Positions 14,563-23,770 of a stretch of DNA of 44,005 bases are shown here, piece after piece. The stretch is from Vectrevirus T205P4. Positions within the stretch are counted from its first letter, which is position 1. Each line of letters starts with the position of its first letter. The DNA lies in the sequence record OZ035727.1, one strand, 5' to 3'. The position numbers were made by a program, and so were the translations under genes. The notes below the pieces were generated by a model. It was not told the origin of the DNA. It searched no databases and saw nothing but the letters and a program-made list of their open reading frames with translations.

Positions 14563-16551
14563 ATGGCTATTATTCAGAATGTACCGTGTCCTGCCTGTCA
14601 AAAGAATGGACATGATGTTACCGGCAACCATCTCATGATCTTTGATGATGGTGCTGGCTATTGCAACCGTGGTCACTTCCACGATAACGGAAAGCCATAC
14701 TACCATAAGCCCGAAGGTGGCATCGAGATAACCGAGTTGCCTATTACTGGCAATATCAAATATACACCTTCTCAGTTCAAAGAGATGGAGAAGGAAGGGA
14801 AGATAAGCGACCCTAAGCTACGCGCCATCGCACTTGGTGGTATGCGTATGAAAGACCGTTGGGAGGTTATGAATGAGCAAGAAAGGGCAGACCAAGAAGC
14901 AGAGTGGAAACTTGATGTTGAATGGTTCCTCACGCTTAAGCGTAAGAACCTTGTATCCCGACACATTCGCGGCGACATCGCAGCACTATATGATGTGCGA
15001 GTGGGCCATGATGAAGAAGGAAGAGTCAATCGTCACTACTACCCCCGCTTCGAGAAAGGTGAGCTAGTAGGCGCTAAGTGCCGTACCTTACCTAAAGACT
15101 TTAAGTTTGGTCATTTAGGTAAACTATTTGGTATGCAAGATCTTTTCGGTATGAATACTTTGTCTCACGTGTTAGACAAGGGAAGACGAAAGGATTGCTT
15201 GCTTATCGTAGGCGGCGAACTTGATGCACTAGCAGCCCAGCAGATGCTTCTTGATTCCGCCAAGGGCACTAAGTGGGAAGGACAACCATATCATGTGTGG
15301 TCTGTCAACAAGGGTGAGTCTTGCCTTGAAGAGATAGTGCAGAACCGTGAACATATCGCTCAATTCAAGAAGATTATATGGGGCTTTGATGGGGATGAGG
15401 TTGGGCAGAAGCAGAACCAACAAGCGGCTCGCCTGTTTCCTGGTAAATCCTATATCCTTGAGTATCCTTCTGGGTGTAAAGATGCTAACAAGGCATTGAT
15501 GGCTGGCAAGGCTAAAGAATTTGTGGATGCTTGGTTTAATGCCAAGTCATCTGATGAAGTCTTTGGTAGCCAGATTAAATCTATCGCATCTCAAAGGGAT
15601 AAGCTCAAGGCTGCACGTCCCGAGCAAGGATTGTCATGGCCTTGGCCTAAGCTGAACAAGGTAACGCTAGGTATTCGTAAGAACCAGCTTATCATTGTAG
15701 GTGCAGGGTCTGGTGTAGGTAAGACTGAGTTCCTTCGTGAAGTAGTTAAGCACCTCATTGAAGAACACGGTGAATCTGTAGGCATCATTTCTACAGAAGA
15801 CCCGATGGTCAAGGTGTCCCGTGCTTTTATCGGCAAGTGGATTGATAAGCGTATTGAGTTACCGCCAACCAACGACCCGAAAGAAGATGGATACCGTGAG
15901 GTGTTCGACTACACCGAGGAAGAAGCTAACGCCGCCATTGATTATGTAGCTGATACAGGTAAGCTGTTTGTAGCTGACCTAGAGGGTGACTATTCGATGG
16001 AAAAGGTAGAGCAAACTTGCCTAGAGTTTGAGGCTATGGGCATTTCTAATATCATCATTGATAACTTAACGGGGATTAAATTAGATGAGCGTGCTTTTGG
16101 TGGGAAGGTTGGTGCACTTGATGAATGCGTCAAGCGGATTGGTACTATCAAAGACCGACACCCGGTTACTATATTCCTTGTATCACACCTTACACGTCCT
16201 CCGGCAAACCGTACCCAACACGAAGAAGGTGGCGAAGTTATCCTTTCTGACTTCCGAGGCTCAGGAGCTATCGGATTCTGGGCATCTTACGCCTTGGGGA
16301 TTGAGCGTAATACAAGAGCTGAAACGCTTGACGAAAGGACTACCACGTACATCTCATGTGTCAAAGACCGCGACCAAGGTATCTGGACTGGAACCAAGGT
16401 CATGCTTAAGGGTGACATTCAAACCGGACGTTTAATGGAACCACAAGCCCGTACTAAGTCATTTGATACAGGTGAAGCAAGGCAACAAGAAGTACCAGAT
16501 TTACCGGACACTATAGAAGAGACTAACTTCGATGAAGAAAGTGAGTTCTGA
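14563..16551 (+). CDS. DNA primase/helicase (T7 gp4-like), 662 aa
   Basis: N-terminal Cys4 zinc ribbon (CPACQKNGHD...CNRGH), helicase Walker A GAGSGVGKT, acidic C-terminus ...FDEESEF ending in Phe as in T7 gp4. Confidence 0.93.
   Translation: MAIIQNVPCPACQKNGHDVTGNHLMIFDDGAGYCNRGHFHDNGKPYYHKPEGGIEITELPITGNIKYTPSQFKEMEKEGKISDPKLRAIALGGMRMKDRWEVMNEQERADQEAEWKLDVEWFLTLKRKNLVSRHIRGDIAALYDVRVGHDEEGRVNRHYYPRFEKGELVGAKCRTLPKDFKFGHLGKLFGMQDLFGMNTLSHVLDKGRRKDCLLIVGGELDALAAQQMLLDSAKGTKWEGQPYHVWSVNKGESCLEEIVQNREHIAQFKKIIWGFDGDEVGQKQNQQAARLFPGKSYILEYPSGCKDANKALMAGKAKEFVDAWFNAKSSDEVFGSQIKSIASQRDKLKAARPEQGLSWPWPKLNKVTLGIRKNQLIIVGAGSGVGKTEFLREVVKHLIEEHGESVGIISTEDPMVKVSRAFIGKWIDKRIELPPTNDPKEDGYREVFDYTEEEANAAIDYVADTGKLFVADLEGDYSMEKVEQTCLEFEAMGISNIIIDNLTGIKLDERAFGGKVGALDECVKRIGTIKDRHPVTIFLVSHLTRPPANRTQHEEGGEVILSDFRGSGAIGFWASYALGIERNTRAETLDERTTTYISCVKDRDQGIWTGTKVMLKGDIQTGRLMEPQARTKSFDTGEARQQEVPDLPDTIEETNFDEESEF
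16498..16521 (+). promoter_or_regulatory. Phage RNAP promoter P5 (GATTTACCGGACACTATAGAAGAG), inside the 3' end of the primase/helicase gene
   Basis: Perfect consensus copy about 30 nt before the helicase stop codon. Confidence 0.7.
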
Positions 16552-17749: not shown

Positions 17750-17765
17750 GTCTCACACGTGAGAC
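17750..17765. repeat. 16-bp palindrome GTCTCACACGTGAGAC, copy 4
   Basis: Perfect palindrome 11 nt after the 17530 ORF stop. Confidence 0.8.
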
Positions 17766-17796
17766 AGCCTTTCATCATATTGATTGGAGGTGCATT

Positions 17797-17904
17797 ATGC
17801 CACGTGATTATGATTCTGATTGGGATTTCCAAGATTCAATGCAACCTAAACCAGAAAGGAGGGAGGATGAGTTCGAAACAGATCAAATGTATGAGGATTT
17901 TTAC
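17797..17904 (+). CDS. Hypothetical acidic micro-protein, 35 aa (MPRDYDSDWDFQDSMQPKPERREDEFETDQMYEDFY)
   Basis: TTGGAGG RBS 6 nt upstream; overlaps the HNH gene start; could instead be untranslated leader. Confidence 0.3.
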
Positions 17905-18346
17905 TAACTACATCCTCTATTCCGACGGTCGTATCTTTAGTGATAAGAAGAAGAGATACCTAACAGGTACTCTTGATAGCTACGGTTACCGTCAAGTTAA
18001 ACTTAATGGAGACTTATACCTCTTACACAGGTTAGTTGCATTATATTTCATTCCTAATCCCGATAACTTACCTGAAGTTGATCACGTAGATTTTAACCGA
18101 GACAATAATTGTGTATCTAATCTACGGTGGGTTTCCAGAAGAACCAACCTAGAGCATAGCAAGGTAAGACGCTGTACTGCACAGGCTAAGTTTTATAACT
18201 TCGTAGACCCTGACGGTAATATTGTTACAGTGTATGGTCTATCTTCTTTCTGCAAAGAGAATGGACTAAGCCAAGCAGCGATGCACCATGTGTGGTCTGG
18301 TAATAGAAATCATCACAAAGGTTGGACTAAATATGTTGAATGTTGA
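17867..18346 (+). CDS. Free-standing HNH homing endonuclease, about 160 aa
   Basis: GYRQVKL...LHRLVALYFIPNP...VDHVDFNRDNN...NLRWV...N pattern typical of phage HNH endonucleases; AGGAGGGAGG RBS before ATG at 17867. Confidence 0.85.
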   Translation: MSSKQIKCMRIFTNYILYSDGRIFSDKKKRYLTGTLDSYGYRQVKLNGDLYLLHRLVALYFIPNPDNLPEVDHVDFNRDNNCVSNLRWVSRRTNLEHSKVRRCTAQAKFYNFVDPDGNIVTVYGLSSFCKENGLSQAAMHHVWSGNRNHHKGWTKYVEC

Positions 18347-20879
18347 TTGGAAAGAATACGGTAAAAACCGGATCCTAGTTATGGACGCCGAAGCAAAAGG
18401 CTTGCTTGATGCCATACGCTATGGTCATCGTGAAGATGTGCACATCATTTGCTGCATGGATTTACTCACCACTGAGGAGTTCCTATTCTTCGACCCATAT
18501 GAGATGCGTGACCCTGAGGCAAGGGAACGCCTGAAGGAGTGGGAAGGCCATCAAGACGGAACCTTGGTTGATGGTGTTAACTTCCTAAAGCACTGTGAAG
18601 CCATCGTCTCACAGAACTTCCTAGGCTATGACGGGCTTCTCTTTGAGAAAGCCTTCCCTGACATCTGGAAAGGATTTAACTACACCGAGAGGCGCGGCAA
18701 TGGCAGACTACGTGCTGACCTGTGTCCGGTACGCGTCATGGATACGCTGGTCATGAGTCGCCTGTTAAACCCAGATAGACGCCTTCCTCCGCAAGCATAT
18801 GCCAAAGGCATGGGTAACGTCGCCCCTCACTCAATTGAGGCGCACGGCATCCGTATAGGCCGCTATAAACCAGAGAACGAGGACTGGTCTAAACTAACTG
18901 ACCACATGGTTCACCGTGTACGTGAAGACGTGGCAATTGGTCGTGACCTTTTCCTATGGCTTTACAACGGAGAGTGGACGGAGCACAAACGCCGTGGCGT
19001 GAATAAACGTACTGGCCTAGGTATTGAGACAGCCTTCCACATGGAGTCCATTGTGGCGCTGGAGATGAGCCGTCAGGCCGAGCGCGGGTTCCGTCTGGAC
19101 ATCGACAAGGCTTTGGCCCGATGCGAAGAATTGGACGCTAAAATTGACGAGACAGTCGCAGCGTTCCGCCCTCACATGCCTATGCGTATCAAGTCTAAAC
19201 CTTTTAAACCGGAAGAAAAGAATGAAGTATGCCAACGCGCAAATGAGTATGGAGCTAGCAACAATATACCTACTGTCCTTGACCCCTCACACTTTCTTCA
19301 TGCCGAGAGACGAGGAGATCGCAAGACAGTATGGAGTGTCACTACTAAGTCTGGTGATTGGTCGGCTAGTGTCAAGAAAGACTTCCCTCACCTTAGAGGA
19401 AACCGTAATGACACGCCAAGCATCAAGTGGATTGGCGCTTACTCGCCTGTTACTTTCGAAGAGATTCCCTTGGGTAACAGGGATACAGTTAAGCAAGTGC
19501 TCTATGATTATGGATGGAAAGGTGTTGAATTTAACGATACCGAGCAAGCTCATCTCGATGAGCACGGAGTGTTACCCAAACCTTGGAGTGGTAAGATAAA
19601 TGAAAAGTCCCTTACTTTATGGCAAGAAAGAGCCGCACGTGAAGGTAAAACAGTCCCTGATTGGTGCTTGGGTATCGCTGCATGGTACATACTCGTATCC
19701 CGTCGTGGTCAGATACTCAACCGTGGTGACGTTGAAGCCTTCAACGAGAAGGGAACGTGGCCCTCGCAGGCTGGTGTACGAAAGTGTCGCGGCCTTGTAC
19801 CGGTAGCATTCAACAAGGAGCTAGGAATCAATGCGCAGCAATACTACGAGAGGTACGGATATTGGCCTACGTCTGACAAAGATGACGGAGAGTGGCGTGT
19901 TCCAGCTGTTGCTATTAGTATTGGCACTTCTACGTTCCGTATGCGTCATCGTAACGTGGTTAATATTCCTGCCCGTGGCTTGTATCCTTTACGTGATTTA
20001 TTCATAGCAGGGAAAGGCAAGCTAATCCTTGGTTGTGACGGTGCAGGTCTTGAACTGCGTGTCCTGTCTCACTTCATGAATGACCCTGAGTACCAAGAGA
20101 TTGTACTGCACGGTGATATTCATACGCATAACCAGATGAAGGCTGGTCTTCCTAAGCGTGATATGGCGAAGACGTTTATATACGCCTTCCTCTATGGCTC
20201 TGGTATAGCCAACCTTGCAGCAGTATGTGGTGTTACTGAGGAGGAAATGAAGGAAGTTGTGGCAAGATTCGAGATTGAACTGCCGTCTCTTGCACGTCTT
20301 CGTGAGAATGTTATCGCACAAGGTAACAAGTTTGGCTACCTGCAAGCACCTGATGGGCATTGGGGTCGCATCCGCATGTCTGGTGGTGAACTTAAAGAGC
20401 ACACGATGCTTAACGTATTACTCCAGATGACTGGCTCTTTGTGTATGAAATATGCATTAGTAAAGGCATTTGCAGTAATGCGCAAGGAAGGTGTAGCCTT
20501 GGATGCTATGGGAAATCCTTGTGGTGTGGCTAACGTGCATGATGAAATCCAGATGGAAGTTCCTGAAGAGGAGGTCTTGTATCTTAACTACGACCTACCT
20601 TTCACCTTAGATGGGTTCGAAACAGAGAAGGCTGCCGTGAAAGCAGTGTTCGATGCAGAGGAGAAACGTGTTCATGTGGATTCTGAAGGACGTATGTGGT
20701 CTGCTGCAAACCTCGTCAGTGTTGATGCTGATGCTGGTGTATTGCATTGCCAGCGCCGTTATCACCGTGCAGGGCATATCATTGCCGACGCCATGACTTG
20801 GGCTGGTCAGTATCTGAAGATGCGTTGCCCGATGGCAGGAGAATATAAGATTGGCACAAGTTGGAAGGAAACACACTGA
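18333..20879 (+). CDS. DNA polymerase, family A (T7 gp5-like), about 848 aa
   Basis: N-terminal 3'-5' exonuclease motif (VMDAEAKGL), long polymerase domain, size close to SP6-type DNAP; start at ATG 18333 (MLNVDWKEYG). Confidence 0.95.
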   Translation: MLNVDWKEYGKNRILVMDAEAKGLLDAIRYGHREDVHIICCMDLLTTEEFLFFDPYEMRDPEARERLKEWEGHQDGTLVDGVNFLKHCEAIVSQNFLGYDGLLFEKAFPDIWKGFNYTERRGNGRLRADLCPVRVMDTLVMSRLLNPDRRLPPQAYAKGMGNVAPHSIEAHGIRIGRYKPENEDWSKLTDHMVHRVREDVAIGRDLFLWLYNGEWTEHKRRGVNKRTGLGIETAFHMESIVALEMSRQAERGFRLDIDKALARCEELDAKIDETVAAFRPHMPMRIKSKPFKPEEKNEVCQRANEYGASNNIPTVLDPSHFLHAERRGDRKTVWSVTTKSGDWSASVKKDFPHLRGNRNDTPSIKWIGAYSPVTFEEIPLGNRDTVKQVLYDYGWKGVEFNDTEQAHLDEHGVLPKPWSGKINEKSLTLWQERAAREGKTVPDWCLGIAAWYILVSRRGQILNRGDVEAFNEKGTWPSQAGVRKCRGLVPVAFNKELGINAQQYYERYGYWPTSDKDDGEWRVPAVAISIGTSTFRMRHRNVVNIPARGLYPLRDLFIAGKGKLILGCDGAGLELRVLSHFMNDPEYQEIVLHGDIHTHNQMKAGLPKRDMAKTFIYAFLYGSGIANLAAVCGVTEEEMKEVVARFEIELPSLARLRENVIAQGNKFGYLQAPDGHWGRIRMSGGELKEHTMLNVLLQMTGSLCMKYALVKAFAVMRKEGVALDAMGNPCGVANVHDEIQMEVPEEEVLYLNYDLPFTLDGFETEKAAVKAVFDAEEKRVHVDSEGRMWSAANLVSVDADAGVLHCQRRYHRAGHIIADAMTWAGQYLKMRCPMAGEYKIGTSWKETH

Positions 20880-20995
20880 TGGATAGGCTTGACATTGTTT
20901 GCCTGTTCTTCACTTTCTTTCTTACACTCCTTATGCTTGCTTGTTATGGGAGTGTGAGACTAGATGTACCTGATGAAGAAGAGGGTTACGACTAA
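20879..20995 (+). CDS. Small membrane protein, 38 aa, hydrophobic core plus acidic C-terminus (DVPDEEEGYD)
   Basis: TGATG overlap with DNAP stop; below track cutoff. Confidence 0.35.
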   Translation: MDRLDIVCLFFTFFLTLLMLACYGSVRLDVPDEEEGYD

Positions 20996-21093
20996 TGCAA
21001 ACTGCTTTTATTATTCTTGGTATCGTATTATTTATGGTAGTACTCTGGGCCTTCTCTGGCATTGACCCGGATTGTGATGGTAACTACGACTGA
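20995..21093 (+). CDS. Small membrane protein, 32 aa, hydrophobic core plus acidic C-terminus (DPDCDGNYD)
   Basis: TAATG overlap with previous small ORF; same architecture. Confidence 0.35.
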   Translation: MQTAFIILGIVLFMVVLWAFSGIDPDCDGNYD

Positions 21094-21150
21094 GTTATAC
21101 TCAAGGTCACTTACGAGTGGCCTTTATGAATAACTTAACTGGAGAGTATT

Positions 21151-21411
21151 ATGATTAAATCACAGAAGTATTTCTCAACTAAAGATCGTAAGGTAGGTTT
21201 TGAAATCAAAGTTTGGGAAGACGGACACATTACTATTATTTACGAAGGTAAAGGTTCTAATGGTATGATGCTACGTAGATGCCGTACATTCACAAAGAAA
21301 GAATGTATGCATATGTCTGAATGCATGTTTCTTTACATCATTGCTGATGATATTAAAGGTATGAAGCTAATTGTATCTCTACCTTTAATACCTAAATCTT
21401 TGTTAGGTTGA
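21151..21411 (+). CDS. Hypothetical protein, 86 aa
   Basis: GGAGAG RBS. Confidence 0.55.
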   Translation: MIKSQKYFSTKDRKVGFEIKVWEDGHITIIYEGKGSNGMMLRRCRTFTKKECMHMSECMFLYIIADDIKGMKLIVSLPLIPKSLLG

Positions 21412-21433
21412 TTTACTGGACACTATAGAAGGA
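21410..21433 (+). promoter_or_regulatory. Phage RNAP promoter P6 (GATTTACTGGACACTATAGAAGGA)
   Basis: Consensus copy overlapping the stop of the 21151 gene. Confidence 0.8.
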
Positions 21434-21497: not shown

Positions 21498-21875
21498 ATG
21501 TCAATGGTAACTACTCTGGTATTTGTAGCTCAATACTTTCGTGGTCTGGCTAATAAGTTCAAATCCAAGGCTATCAAAGCTATTGAGTCTCGCATCGAGG
21601 CAGTACAGGCAGAGCAAGTTAAAGTTGAAGAACATCGTAGTTCTCAAATGATTGACTGTCATAACCGCTACTATGCATCTCGTGATGAACTAAATGCACG
21701 TCAAGTCAAAGAGGTAGAAGATATGCTGGCACGTCACCAGCAAGAGCGTGACAGCCTGAAAGCTGAATTTGAAGAGAACAAGGCATCAATTGCTCTTGTA
21801 AATCAAGCTGCATCTGACAGCCTGAAGAAAGAGATTGTTATGCTGGAAATAGAACTGGACAACTTGACTAAATAA
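21498..21875 (+). CDS. Hypothetical membrane-anchored coiled-coil protein, 125 aa
   Basis: AGGAGA RBS; N-terminal hydrophobic segment then charged heptad-like region. Confidence 0.6.
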   Translation: MSMVTTLVFVAQYFRGLANKFKSKAIKAIESRIEAVQAEQVKVEEHRSSQMIDCHNRYYASRDELNARQVKEVEDMLARHQQERDSLKAEFEENKASIALVNQAASDSLKKEIVMLEIELDNLTK

Positions 21876-22258: not shown

Positions 22259-23065
22259 ATGGCACGTGGTGATTTTGATTTTGGTGCTCAGGTTACTAAA
22301 GCTGAAGGTAAAGTATTTAAGAACCCTGAAGTTGGTGATCATGAAGCAGTAATCTCTGGCATCATTCATGTTGGTTCCTTCCAAGATATCTTTAAGAAAG
22401 GTAATACCACTGAAGTTAAGAAGCCAGCAAACTTTGTTCTTGTTAAGATTATCCTGATGGGTGACGACGATAAGAATGAAGATGATTCTCGCATGGAACA
22501 ATGGATGGCTGTGCCTCTGAAGTCTGGTGATAAGGCAACACTGACTAAGTTCCTGAATGCAGTTGACCCTAAAGAGTTGCTGGGTGGCTTCGATGATTTT
22601 ATCGGTGAATGTCTGACTGCAACTATGGTTGGCTCTGGCGACAAGAATGATGATGGTACTTTCAAGTATGTTAACTGGAAAGGCTTTGGCGGTATGCCTG
22701 ATAAGTTGAAGAAGCTTGTACTGGCTCAGGTAGAAGAGGAAGGTCTGTCTATGACAGGTCATATCACCTTCGACAAGCTGACCAAAGAAATCCTTGATGA
22801 CATCCCAGCTAACTTGGTACGTCAATACTTCCTGAACGAGACACCTCGTGGTAAGAACCTGTCTGTTGCTGGCTCTCACGTAGAAGCTATTATCAAAGCT
22901 GCTCGTGAAGAAGACCTTGAATGGAAGAAGGCTAAGAAGAAAGACGAGGAAGATGCTACCCCAGCTAATCGTAAATCTCTGGATACTGGTGAGTCTGTTC
23001 CACAGGAAGTACCTGAAGCAGAAGATACTCCTGCACCGGAGATGGATGAGGACGCGGAATATTAA
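22259..23065 (+). CDS. Hypothetical DNA-metabolism protein, 268 aa, acidic C-terminal tail ending in Tyr; possibly the ssDNA-binding protein (gp2.5 analog)
   Basis: Strong RBS and promoter; acidic tail ...PEMDEDAEY resembles the polymerase-interacting tails of T7 gp2.5/gp4; body does not obviously align to T7 gp2.5, so function is a guess. Confidence 0.7.
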   Translation: MARGDFDFGAQVTKAEGKVFKNPEVGDHEAVISGIIHVGSFQDIFKKGNTTEVKKPANFVLVKIILMGDDDKNEDDSRMEQWMAVPLKSGDKATLTKFLNAVDPKELLGGFDDFIGECLTATMVGSGDKNDDGTFKYVNWKGFGGMPDKLKKLVLAQVEEEGLSMTGHITFDKLTKEILDDIPANLVRQYFLNETPRGKNLSVAGSHVEAIIKAAREEDLEWKKAKKKDEEDATPANRKSLDTGESVPQEVPEAEDTPAPEMDEDAEY

Positions 23066-23398: not shown

Positions 23399-23770
23399 AT
23401 GTTCAAGATTGAAACTATCGTAAACCGTGTTGTTAAAGGTGCTGCTCTGGTATCCGTTGAGTCTTTCATTATCGTCGATGAAGCTGATCAACTGGTAGCT
23501 GGTACTAAGGCTTACGATACCCGTGAAGAAGCTCAGGCTAAGATTGACAGCATGGGTAACTTCGCTGCTGGTCTGGAGTTCGCTCGTGCTTGCTTCCCTG
23601 AGCAGGCTGACAAAGCCCAGATCGGTAAGGCTAACATCGTAGCTGAATATCTGGATTGGATTGCTGCTGGTAAACCAGTGAAAGAAGTTAAAGCTGCTGA
23701 AGAAGCTGAAGCTCCGGCAGTAGAAGAAACCAAAGCAGAAGAAGTACTGTCTGCTGAAGAAGAATTTTAA
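23399..23770 (+). CDS. Hypothetical, probably highly expressed protein, 123 aa, Ala/Glu-rich C-terminal tail ending ...SAEEEF
   Basis: Own consensus promoter, AAAAGGAGA RBS, terminator-like hairpin downstream; acidic tail ending in Phe. Confidence 0.7.
   Translation: MFKIETIVNRVVKGAALVSVESFIIVDEADQLVAGTKAYDTREEAQAKIDSMGNFAAGLEFARACFPEQADKAQIGKANIVAEYLDWIAAGKPVKEVKAAEEAEAPAVEETKAEEVLSAEEEF

Follow-up and report, generated by a model that had tools for sequence, protein, structure and literature searches.

Organization of the locus

The 44,005-nucleotide (nt) stretch of Vectrevirus T205P4 DNA (OZ035727.1), referred to below as the window, carries two very short open reading frames (ORFs) directly after its DNA polymerase gene. 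They are named here ORF1 and ORF2, and their predicted products are membrane peptides of 38 and 32 amino acids (aa), each consisting of a hydrophobic helix and an acidic tail. The window belongs to a K1E/K1-5-like Vectrevirus (Autographiviridae, Molineuxvirinae, SP6 supergroup). The DNA of the region is 99.9% identical to that of Vectrevirus DIJ06P1 and 87–98% identical to that of many K1E/K1-5-like coliphages, and the identity is 87–100% to those K1E, K1-5 and Vectrevirus records in which coding sequences of equal lengths are annotated as 13.5 and 14. The features that define the two genes are listed below, where dN/dS denotes the ratio of nonsynonymous to synonymous substitution rates.

18288–20879, plus strand: ORF of the family-A DNA polymerase (gene 13 of K1E), from the Pfam match DNA_pol_A (E 5e-23) and the K1E annotation
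20877–20881, plus strand: TGATG, the one-base overlap of the polymerase stop and the ORF1 start, read from the sequence; TAATG or TAGTG in relatives
20879–20995, plus strand: ORF1, 38 aa, gp13.5 of K1E/K1-5 (phrog_15860), from annotation, profile match and a dN/dS of 0.157
20888–20950, plus strand: predicted hydrophobic transmembrane segment of ORF1, approximately residues 4–24 (Kyte-Doolittle, AlphaFold2)
20963–20992, plus strand: acidic tail DVPDEEEGYD of ORF1, from the alignment, with PDEEEGYD nearly invariant
20993–20997, plus strand: TAATG, the one-base overlap of the ORF1 stop and the ORF2 start, read from the sequence and likewise annotated in K1E and K1-5
20995–21093, plus strand: ORF2, 32 aa, gp14 of K1E/K1-5 and gp15 of SP6 (phrog_4539), from annotation, profile match and a dN/dS of 0.186
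21001–21063, plus strand: predicted hydrophobic transmembrane segment of ORF2, approximately residues 3–23 (Kyte-Doolittle, AlphaFold2)
21064–21090, plus strand: acidic tail DPDCDGNYD of ORF2, from the alignment, invariant except for C27 replaced by Y in SP6

The polymerase ORF ends with the TGA at 20877–20879; translation probably begins at the ATG at 18333, giving a protein of 848 aa like that of K1E. ORF1 starts with the ATG at 20879 and stops with the TAA at 20993–20995, and its product is MDRLDIVCLFFTFFLTLLMLACYGSVRLDVPDEEEGYD (38 aa). ORF2 starts with the ATG at 20995 and stops with the TGA at 21091–21093, and its product is MQTAFIILGIVLFMVVLWAFSGIDPDCDGNYD (32 aa). The original prediction had described two micro-ORFs of 38 and 32 aa directly after the polymerase, stop/start coupled through TGATG and TAATG, and both the sequence and the ORF list agree with this description.

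The one-base overlap of stop and start survives changes in the codons themselves. It occurs as TGATG, as TAATG and, in L042, as TAGTG, where GTG is the start codon (L-numbers denote the related loci and contigs that were compared, L003 being SP6 and L043 being NTNC80A). Such overlaps favour a termination-reinitiation coupling of both genes to the translation of the polymerase. The Shine-Dalgarno pairing is moderate, reaching −5.7 kcal/mol for ORF1 and −6.3 kcal/mol for ORF2, compared with −6.8 to −7.3 kcal/mol for the genes nearby and −2.6 kcal/mol as the mean of the background, which fits genes leaning on termination-reinitiation. The possibility that a frameshift extends the polymerase into ORF1 was also considered and rejected. 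No slippery heptamer was seen when reading the last polymerase codons, ORF1 has a start of its own (the GTG variant included), and it persists where an HNH gene has come between it and the polymerase.

Identity of the two genes

ORF1 and ORF2 are already known genes, annotated about 20 years ago in the K1E/K1-5/SP6 group of phages, which the original prediction had missed. K1E and K1-5 carry them as genes 13.5 and 14, with equal lengths and overlaps and the label hypothetical. The K1E products gp13.5 and gp14 (YP_424989 and YP_424990) have the same lengths, position and overlaps as those of the window and share 84% aa identity with them, and the K1-5 counterparts (AAR90054 and AAR90055) are the same genes, labelled hypothetical or unknown. 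SP6 differs in having the second gene only, as gp15 (NP_853575; 84% identity to ORF2), joined straight to the polymerase gene.

The profile comparisons lead to the same assignment. ORF1 matches phrog_15860 along its full length (residues 1–38 of 38, E 1.8e-27) and lies right 3′ of the DNA polymerase with an overlap, as do the members of the gp13.5 family. ORF2 matches phrog_4539 (E 4.8e-16) and is the last ORF ahead of a conserved hairpin, as are the members of the gp14/gp15 family. Both PHROG families are labelled as having unknown function, and no functional statement on either gene was found in the literature searched, which offers only table entries marked 'unknown'.

Selection on the two reading frames

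The substitution pattern was examined with the Nei-Gojobori method in distinct nucleotide sequences from related loci, 12 for ORF1 and 10 for ORF2. The in-frame dN/dS is 0.157 for ORF1 and 0.186 for ORF2, and the other two frames give values of 0.80–1.29. The variable sites are most numerous at the third codon position, with 14, 8 and 20 sites at positions one to three in ORF1 and 10, 7 and 18 in ORF2. Pairwise dN/dS values of the two genes range from 0.10 to 0.24, compared with 0.03–0.06 for the adjoining C-terminus of the polymerase (L057 was left out of the polymerase comparison, its alignment being spoiled by insertions and deletions). The constraint on ORF1 and ORF2 is weaker than that on the polymerase C-terminus, yet clearly purifying. 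Overlapping and antisense ORFs at the same place (20931–21062 on the minus strand and 20964–21065 on the plus strand) were rejected on their off-frame dN/dS of about 1.

The genes also persist in more distant surroundings. In one contig, the polymerase has an identity of only 77%, yet a diverged 38-aa member of the ORF1 family, MATVDAVCLVLILILLFIMLACCGSVATKIPFEEEGFD, is retained at the same overlap. In NTNC80A, an HNH endonuclease gene lies between the polymerase and ORF1, and ORF1 is kept there with a new N-terminus.

The alternative that both are chance ORFs in a non-coding spacer draws on their very small size and on the fact that many deposited genomes, especially newer ones, leave one or both of them unannotated. 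It is already refuted by the substitution pattern, with its frame-specific purifying selection, and it also has to face the length and frame kept across 67–68 records, the preserved start overlaps and the existence of PHROG families for both genes. The probability of such a chance origin is close to nil. Judged by these sequence comparisons, ORF1 and ORF2 are genuine protein-coding genes, and the confidence in this is much higher than in the general functional model described further below.

Anatomy of the encoded peptides

The best 19-residue Kyte-Doolittle window scores 2.45 in ORF1 (residues 4–22) and 2.72 in ORF2 (residues 5–23), and the net charges of the peptides are −6 and −4, respectively. 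AlphaFold2 predicts a helix at residues 3–29 of ORF1, with a predicted local distance difference test (pLDDT) score of 90–95, and at residues 2–20 of ORF2, with a pLDDT of about 90. Both tails are modelled as non-helical, with low confidence in ORF1 and a pLDDT of 56–61 in ORF2. The earlier description of each ORF as a hydrophobic helix with an acidic tail is borne out by these scores, charges and helices. Both peptides are shorter than 50 aa and have one predicted hydrophobic helix of bilayer-spanning length, as do small single-pass inner-membrane proteins.

The two families share a helix that tolerates substitution, whereas the residues next to the membrane and the tail hardly vary. In the ORF1 family, the fixed part is ACYGS...PDEEEGYD. 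The sole change of PDEEEGYD within the close family is E34A (P0003), the tail codons show synonymous changes only among the distinct nucleotide sequences compared, and distant members retain EEG[YF]D. In the ORF2 family, the fixed part is W-x-FSG-x-DPD-x-DGNYD. Residues 24–29 of ORF2 (DPDCDG) fit the pattern D-x-D-x-D-G, known as a calcium-binding motif, with D24, D26, D28 and G29 invariant, although such a pattern by itself is weak evidence in an acidic tail of nine residues; the corresponding part of the ORF1 tail (PDEEEG) does not fit it. A likeness of the ORF2 helix (ILGI[IV]LF) to Escherichia coli MgtS is not collinear and was treated as chance.

The charges flanking the helices bear on the orientation of the peptides. 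ORF2 is devoid of any basic residue, which favours a tail-out topology; according to the charge rules, an acidic tail is more easily placed outside. In ORF1, R3 lies on the N side of the helix, and the C side carries R/Q27, which varies (a distant member has K29 instead); this charge pattern appears ambiguous for topology.

The tail is the conserved and selected part of both peptides, a pattern that speaks for specific binding as their function rather than for a generic effect on lipids. This distinction concerns the possibility that the peptides act by themselves in the membrane as depolarising, holin-like, antiholin-like or type-I-toxin-like agents, causing host shutdown or setting the timing of lysis without a protein partner. 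The size of the peptides and their single, very hydrophobic helix recall those of small membrane toxins, and the helix alone may matter, as uncultured SP6-like contigs carry tail-less hydrophobic micro-ORFs in the same slot. However, a peptide acting on lipids is predicted to show the opposite of the observed conservation, in which the helix is more variable and the tail is the most conserved part. The C-termini of holins and type I toxins are typically basic, whereas those of ORF1 and ORF2 are purely acidic. The two genes also lie in a DNA-metabolism unit, that of the polymerase, between phage promoters at 16503 and 21415 and far from the lysis genes; in SP6-type genomes, a putative holin is annotated beside the terminase genes (gene table, PMC4837284). 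An action of this kind is considered improbable.

Relationship between ORF1 and ORF2

The similar architecture of the two peptides had been taken as a sign of paralogy, and this suggestion is not supported by the profile comparison, the shuffling scores or the independent occurrence of the genes. The profile-profile alignment (hhalign) gives a probability of 1.4%, and only the last eight residues align (PDEEEGYD with PDCDGNYD). When helix and tail are shuffled separately, the observed pairwise score is reached in 11% of cases (p = 0.11); for the tails by themselves, p is 0.06. Either gene can also be present without the other, with ORF2 only in SP6-type phages and ORF1 only in CrRp3, 101117UKE2 and NTNC80A. 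Both ORFs terminate in TACGAC followed by the stop codon, exactly where the modules join, and the shared YD end may come from recombination of modules and not from common descent.

The hairpin and the limits of the transcription unit

The unit which contains the polymerase and the two micro-genes is delimited by three further features.

16503–16519, plus strand: phage RNA-polymerase promoter upstream of the polymerase unit, with one mismatch to the consensus
21103–21124, plus strand: hairpin AAGGUCACU-UACG-AGUGGCCUU, closing the polymerase transcription unit (minimum free energy −18.2 kcal/mol, z −3.4)
21415–21431, plus strand: next phage promoter, an exact match to the consensus motif ACTGGACACTATAGAAG, starting the following unit (gene 15)

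The promoter core ACTGGACACTATAGAAG has 10 exact or near-exact matches in the window, compared with 0.09 expected, and those at 16503 and 21415 bracket the polymerase-ORF1-ORF2 unit. The hairpin sits 10 nt past the ORF2 stop, and its outer stem (approximately 21091–21137) reaches back to the stop codon. It is identical in 23 loci, from SP6 to K1E, and in one lineage (L013 and L016) two pairs have changed on both sides in a compensatory way, with one further change on a single side. In every arrangement of the genes, the hairpin comes after whichever ORF is last. It has no match in Rfam and no long U tract, and it may serve as a terminator or as a processing or stability element.

The close spacing of stop codon and hairpin raises the possibility that only the act of translation matters. 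In this scenario, ribosomes would be carried from the polymerase stop to the hairpin, affecting the stability, termination or processing of the mRNA, and the peptides would be by-products. The last stop codon always lies 10 nt ahead of the hairpin, within its outer stem, and conservation is higher in the hairpin than in the ORFs. On the other hand, the amino acid sequence itself is under selection (dN/dS of 0.16–0.19), with almost exclusively synonymous changes in the tails, and a spacer ORF is not needed, as shown by phages whose hairpin directly follows the polymerase stop. Translation for its own sake is thus regarded as a very improbable explanation of the two genes.

The segment between the hairpin and the next promoter holds an 86-aa ORF (21151–21411) with a weak match to phrog_35123. 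K1E and K1-5 have nothing in this slot; it contains related ORFs of 85–98 aa in some relatives, and in L013, L014, L016, L020 and L025 holds an ORF of about 177–197 aa (MNNLTGG...GGAVRDALYG...), which marks it as a variable-cargo site. In the window, a 10-codon ORF, MNNLTGEYYD (21126–21158), begins at the 3′ edge of the inner stem of the hairpin, within the outer stem, and runs into the first codons of the 86-aa ORF. Its ATG opens a 194-aa ORF in L013 and L016, and in L014 a GTG located 9 nt upstream heads a 197-aa ORF; the 10-codon ORF of the window is probably a remnant. RefSeq and phrog_7450 give gene 15 (125 aa, 21498–21875) the name 'polysaccharide chain length determinant protein'. Its matches in Pfam are sub-threshold and of the coiled-coil type only, and the name looks like an unverified transfer.

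Distribution and exchange of the modules

A tblastn search of 50,697 phage records found ORF1 in 67 records, none of them from Salmonella phages, and ORF2 in 68, Salmonella Zinderviruses included. The matches to both peptides are confined to genomes of the Vectrevirus/Zindervirus type. A pattern scan for ORF2 in IMG/VR returned only the same SP6-like contigs, and the scan of 185,579 species genomes gave no match, nor did a blastn search of the 215 bases covering both genes against 5,426 complete E. coli genomes. The PADLOC models of defence-system proteins gave no match at E values up to 10. A profile search with ORF1 through 1.84 billion representatives added just two diverged members, both still attached to a polymerase. 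A fused query of 70 aa retrieved only ORF1 relatives of 38–39 aa on contigs of about 44 kb and one frameshifted ORF2, the database seemingly being without 32-aa proteins.

Four arrangements of the region were found.

Polymerase-ORF1-ORF2-hairpin: the window, K1E, K1-5
Polymerase-ORF2-hairpin: SP6, UAB_Phi78, L012
Polymerase-ORF1-hairpin: CrRp3, 101117UKE2, LF31P3
Polymerase-hairpin without a micro-ORF: L009, L011, L013, L014, L016, L035 (polymerase C-terminus 89–94% identical)

All boundaries have the form ...AC-T(G/A)A, continuing either with the TG that belongs to the following ORF or with the GTTATACTCAAGG that belongs to the hairpin. Such a uniform boundary means that modules can be gained or lost without disturbing the frames. 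Decay is seen as well: a 4-nt TTCT slip breaks ORF1 in ULINTec6, and ORF2 is decayed in the metagenomic contig L006. ORF1 and ORF2 are optional, independently assorting cassettes, limited to Vectrevirus/Zindervirus-like phages.

The synonymous divergence of ORF2 between SP6 and the window (dS 0.30) is far below that of the neighbouring polymerase C-terminus (dS about 2.5). Such a difference suggests that the segment of ORF2 and the hairpin (20995–21124) may have been swapped horizontally between the Zindervirus and Vectrevirus lineages, or may be under an extra constraint at the nucleotide level.

The same places in the unit accommodate other small genes. In L058 (1835–1903), the ORF2 slot is TAATG-coupled to an ORF1 relative and holds a cysteine-rich, non-hydrophobic ORF of 22 aa, MQDTSCPFYPYLEPDCNNCSLR, whose 3′ end aligns with the region of the ORF2 tail. 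In the uncultured SP6-like contigs L027, L028 and L031–L034 (around 1953–2150; polymerase about 54% identical), two unrelated hydrophobic micro-ORFs of 30 and 32 aa come directly after the polymerase. Neither has an acidic tail; the second shows a dN/dS of 0.16, and the first has frame-breaking variants. HNH genes are a further recurrent element. In L019 and L022, one directly follows the polymerase, and in the window, an HNH homing-endonuclease ORF (17759–18346) adjoins the polymerase ORF at its start or overlaps with it there. The insertion of NTNC80A between the polymerase and ORF1 (L043, 275–703) is a different HNH gene from that of the window.

Possible function of the peptides

The preferred interpretation, with a probability of roughly 55%, is that ORF1 and ORF2 encode accessory single-pass proteins of the inner membrane whose acidic tails bind a partner. 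The original prediction's reading of small membrane peptides is sensible, and its suggestion that they may modulate host membrane proteins is a reasonable conjecture. Peptides of 32–38 aa would be completed before they emerge from the ribosome tunnel and would leave the ribosome before targeting is possible, so the insertion would have to be post-translational. They would enter the inner membrane as single-pass proteins via the signal recognition particle with YidC or SecYEG. Post-translational insertion is described for peptides under approximately 45–50 aa (review PMC12648545). The helix would then act as an anchor, and the invariant tail (PD-x4-YD-COOH) would be the working epitope that binds the partner at the membrane surface. 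The role would be an accessory one, because close relatives do without the two genes; host takeover, competition, exclusion or the modulation of an envelope protein would be likely tasks, and a core replication step an unlikely one.

Several observations weigh against this interpretation. Confidence in any particular target is lower than in the general model, and data on expression, localisation or phenotype were not found for these genes in any phage in the literature searched. Neither peptide has a meaningful match in Pfam, NCBIfam, PADLOC or the PDB sequences, and both orientations appear compatible with their sequences. The loss of the genes in several lineages would also fit a very marginal function, and the nucleotide conservation of ORF2 and the hairpin between SP6 and K1E could partly reflect a constraint at the RNA level.

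A more specific partner is offered by the replisome. According to this explanation, cytoplasmic tails would imitate the acidic, aromatic-ended tails with which the helicase and the single-stranded DNA-binding protein (SSB) of T7-type phages dock on the DNA polymerase. Translational coupling would keep their synthesis in step with that of the polymerase, and as a tether or a decoy they would anchor or regulate, at the membrane, either the polymerase or some other protein that binds such tails. Wherever the genes are present, a one-base overlap joins them to the polymerase, and tails of the imitated kind are present in the same genome. The primase-helicase (DnaB_C and Toprim; 14563–16551) ends with NFDEESEF, a 268-aa protein (phrog_862; 22259–23065) with EMDEDAEY, and a 123-aa protein (phrog_4429; 23399–23770) with SAEEEF. 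The 268-aa protein may be the SSB, in view of its T7-style acidic tail with a C-terminal aromatic residue. Moreover, the most conserved basic residue of the distant ORF1 members lies just past the helix (R27/K29), a hint of a tail-in orientation.

gp2.5 of T7 attaches to the front basic patch of the polymerase through its acidic tail, in which the C-terminal Phe is essential (PMC12339929 and references therein). The tails of ORF1 and ORF2 are C-terminal, acid-rich and unstructured, but their aromatic residue is penultimate (YD-COOH) and not at the very C-terminus as in the helicase and SSB tails. Relatives whose polymerase is 89–94% identical over its C-terminal 159 aa lack both peptides, so any role in replication must be dispensable. 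ORF2 has no basic residue that would keep its tail inside, and ORF1 still looks functional when the HNH insertion uncouples it from the polymerase. Participation in the replisome therefore appears unlikely. Lower still is the probability of its most elaborate form, in which the peptides would be membrane-anchored mimics of the helicase and SSB tails, produced in fixed proportion to the polymerase by termination-reinitiation, and would, at the inner membrane, hold the phage replisome in place, slow it down, or capture a host protein that binds such tails. If true, such mimicry would constitute an optional 'replication at the membrane' module in phages of the T7 supergroup. Ordered by confidence, the replisome tether is placed before the perturbation of the membrane, followed by the effect of translation only and finally by chance ORFs.

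Significance

The analysis confirms two often-unannotated micro-genes of K1E/K1-5/SP6-type phages as genes under selection. Phages of this type are used in phage therapy and in work on capsule depolymerases, and annotation pipelines should include both genes, since many deposits omit them. The present case suggests ordinary accessory micro-genes and no new principle. The two genes are nevertheless convenient objects of study: the invariant acidic tail of nine residues is the probable functional determinant, and natural phages with both genes, one or neither exist. Isogenic comparisons could show what a phage gains from a membrane peptide of 32–38 aa.

Comparison with known systems

The tails of the T7 SSB (gp2.5) and helicase (gp4) are, like those of ORF1 and ORF2, short, unstructured and acidic, with an aromatic residue near the end; both kinds belong to the replisome context of the T7 supergroup and are encoded beside the polymerase gene. 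In ORF1 and ORF2, by contrast, the tail is carried by a membrane helix and not by a DNA-binding protein, the aromatic residue is penultimate, and the genes are dispensable.

Small inner-membrane proteins with accessory roles are likewise known from other phages. Imm and Sp of T4 and p16.7 and p1 of phi29 are superinfection-exclusion and membrane-anchor proteins of about 80–130 aa which are made early or in mid-infection. ORF1 and ORF2 are smaller than these and unrelated to them in sequence. The Pf3 coat protein and the M13 procoat resemble ORF1 and ORF2 as small phage-encoded single-span peptides, and offer a plausible insertion route for a tail-out topology. Both are coat proteins of filamentous-phage virions, inserted by YidC with translocation of short acidic segments. 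Small phage proteins are also mentioned in the review of PMC12648545. Unlike these coat proteins, ORF1 and ORF2 are non-structural genes of a lytic podophage, and no homology to them was found.

The working model is provided by the small bacterial regulators MgrB, AcrZ and MgtS. ORF1 and ORF2 have no sequence relationship to them and no relatives in bacterial genomes, and we know of no purely acidic, invariant C-terminal tail in proteins of the MgrB/AcrZ/MgtS type. What they have in common is the size of less than 50 aa and the single transmembrane helix (PMC12648545). Regulators of this type insert post-translationally and, where their action is known, work by binding a larger membrane protein (PMC12648545).

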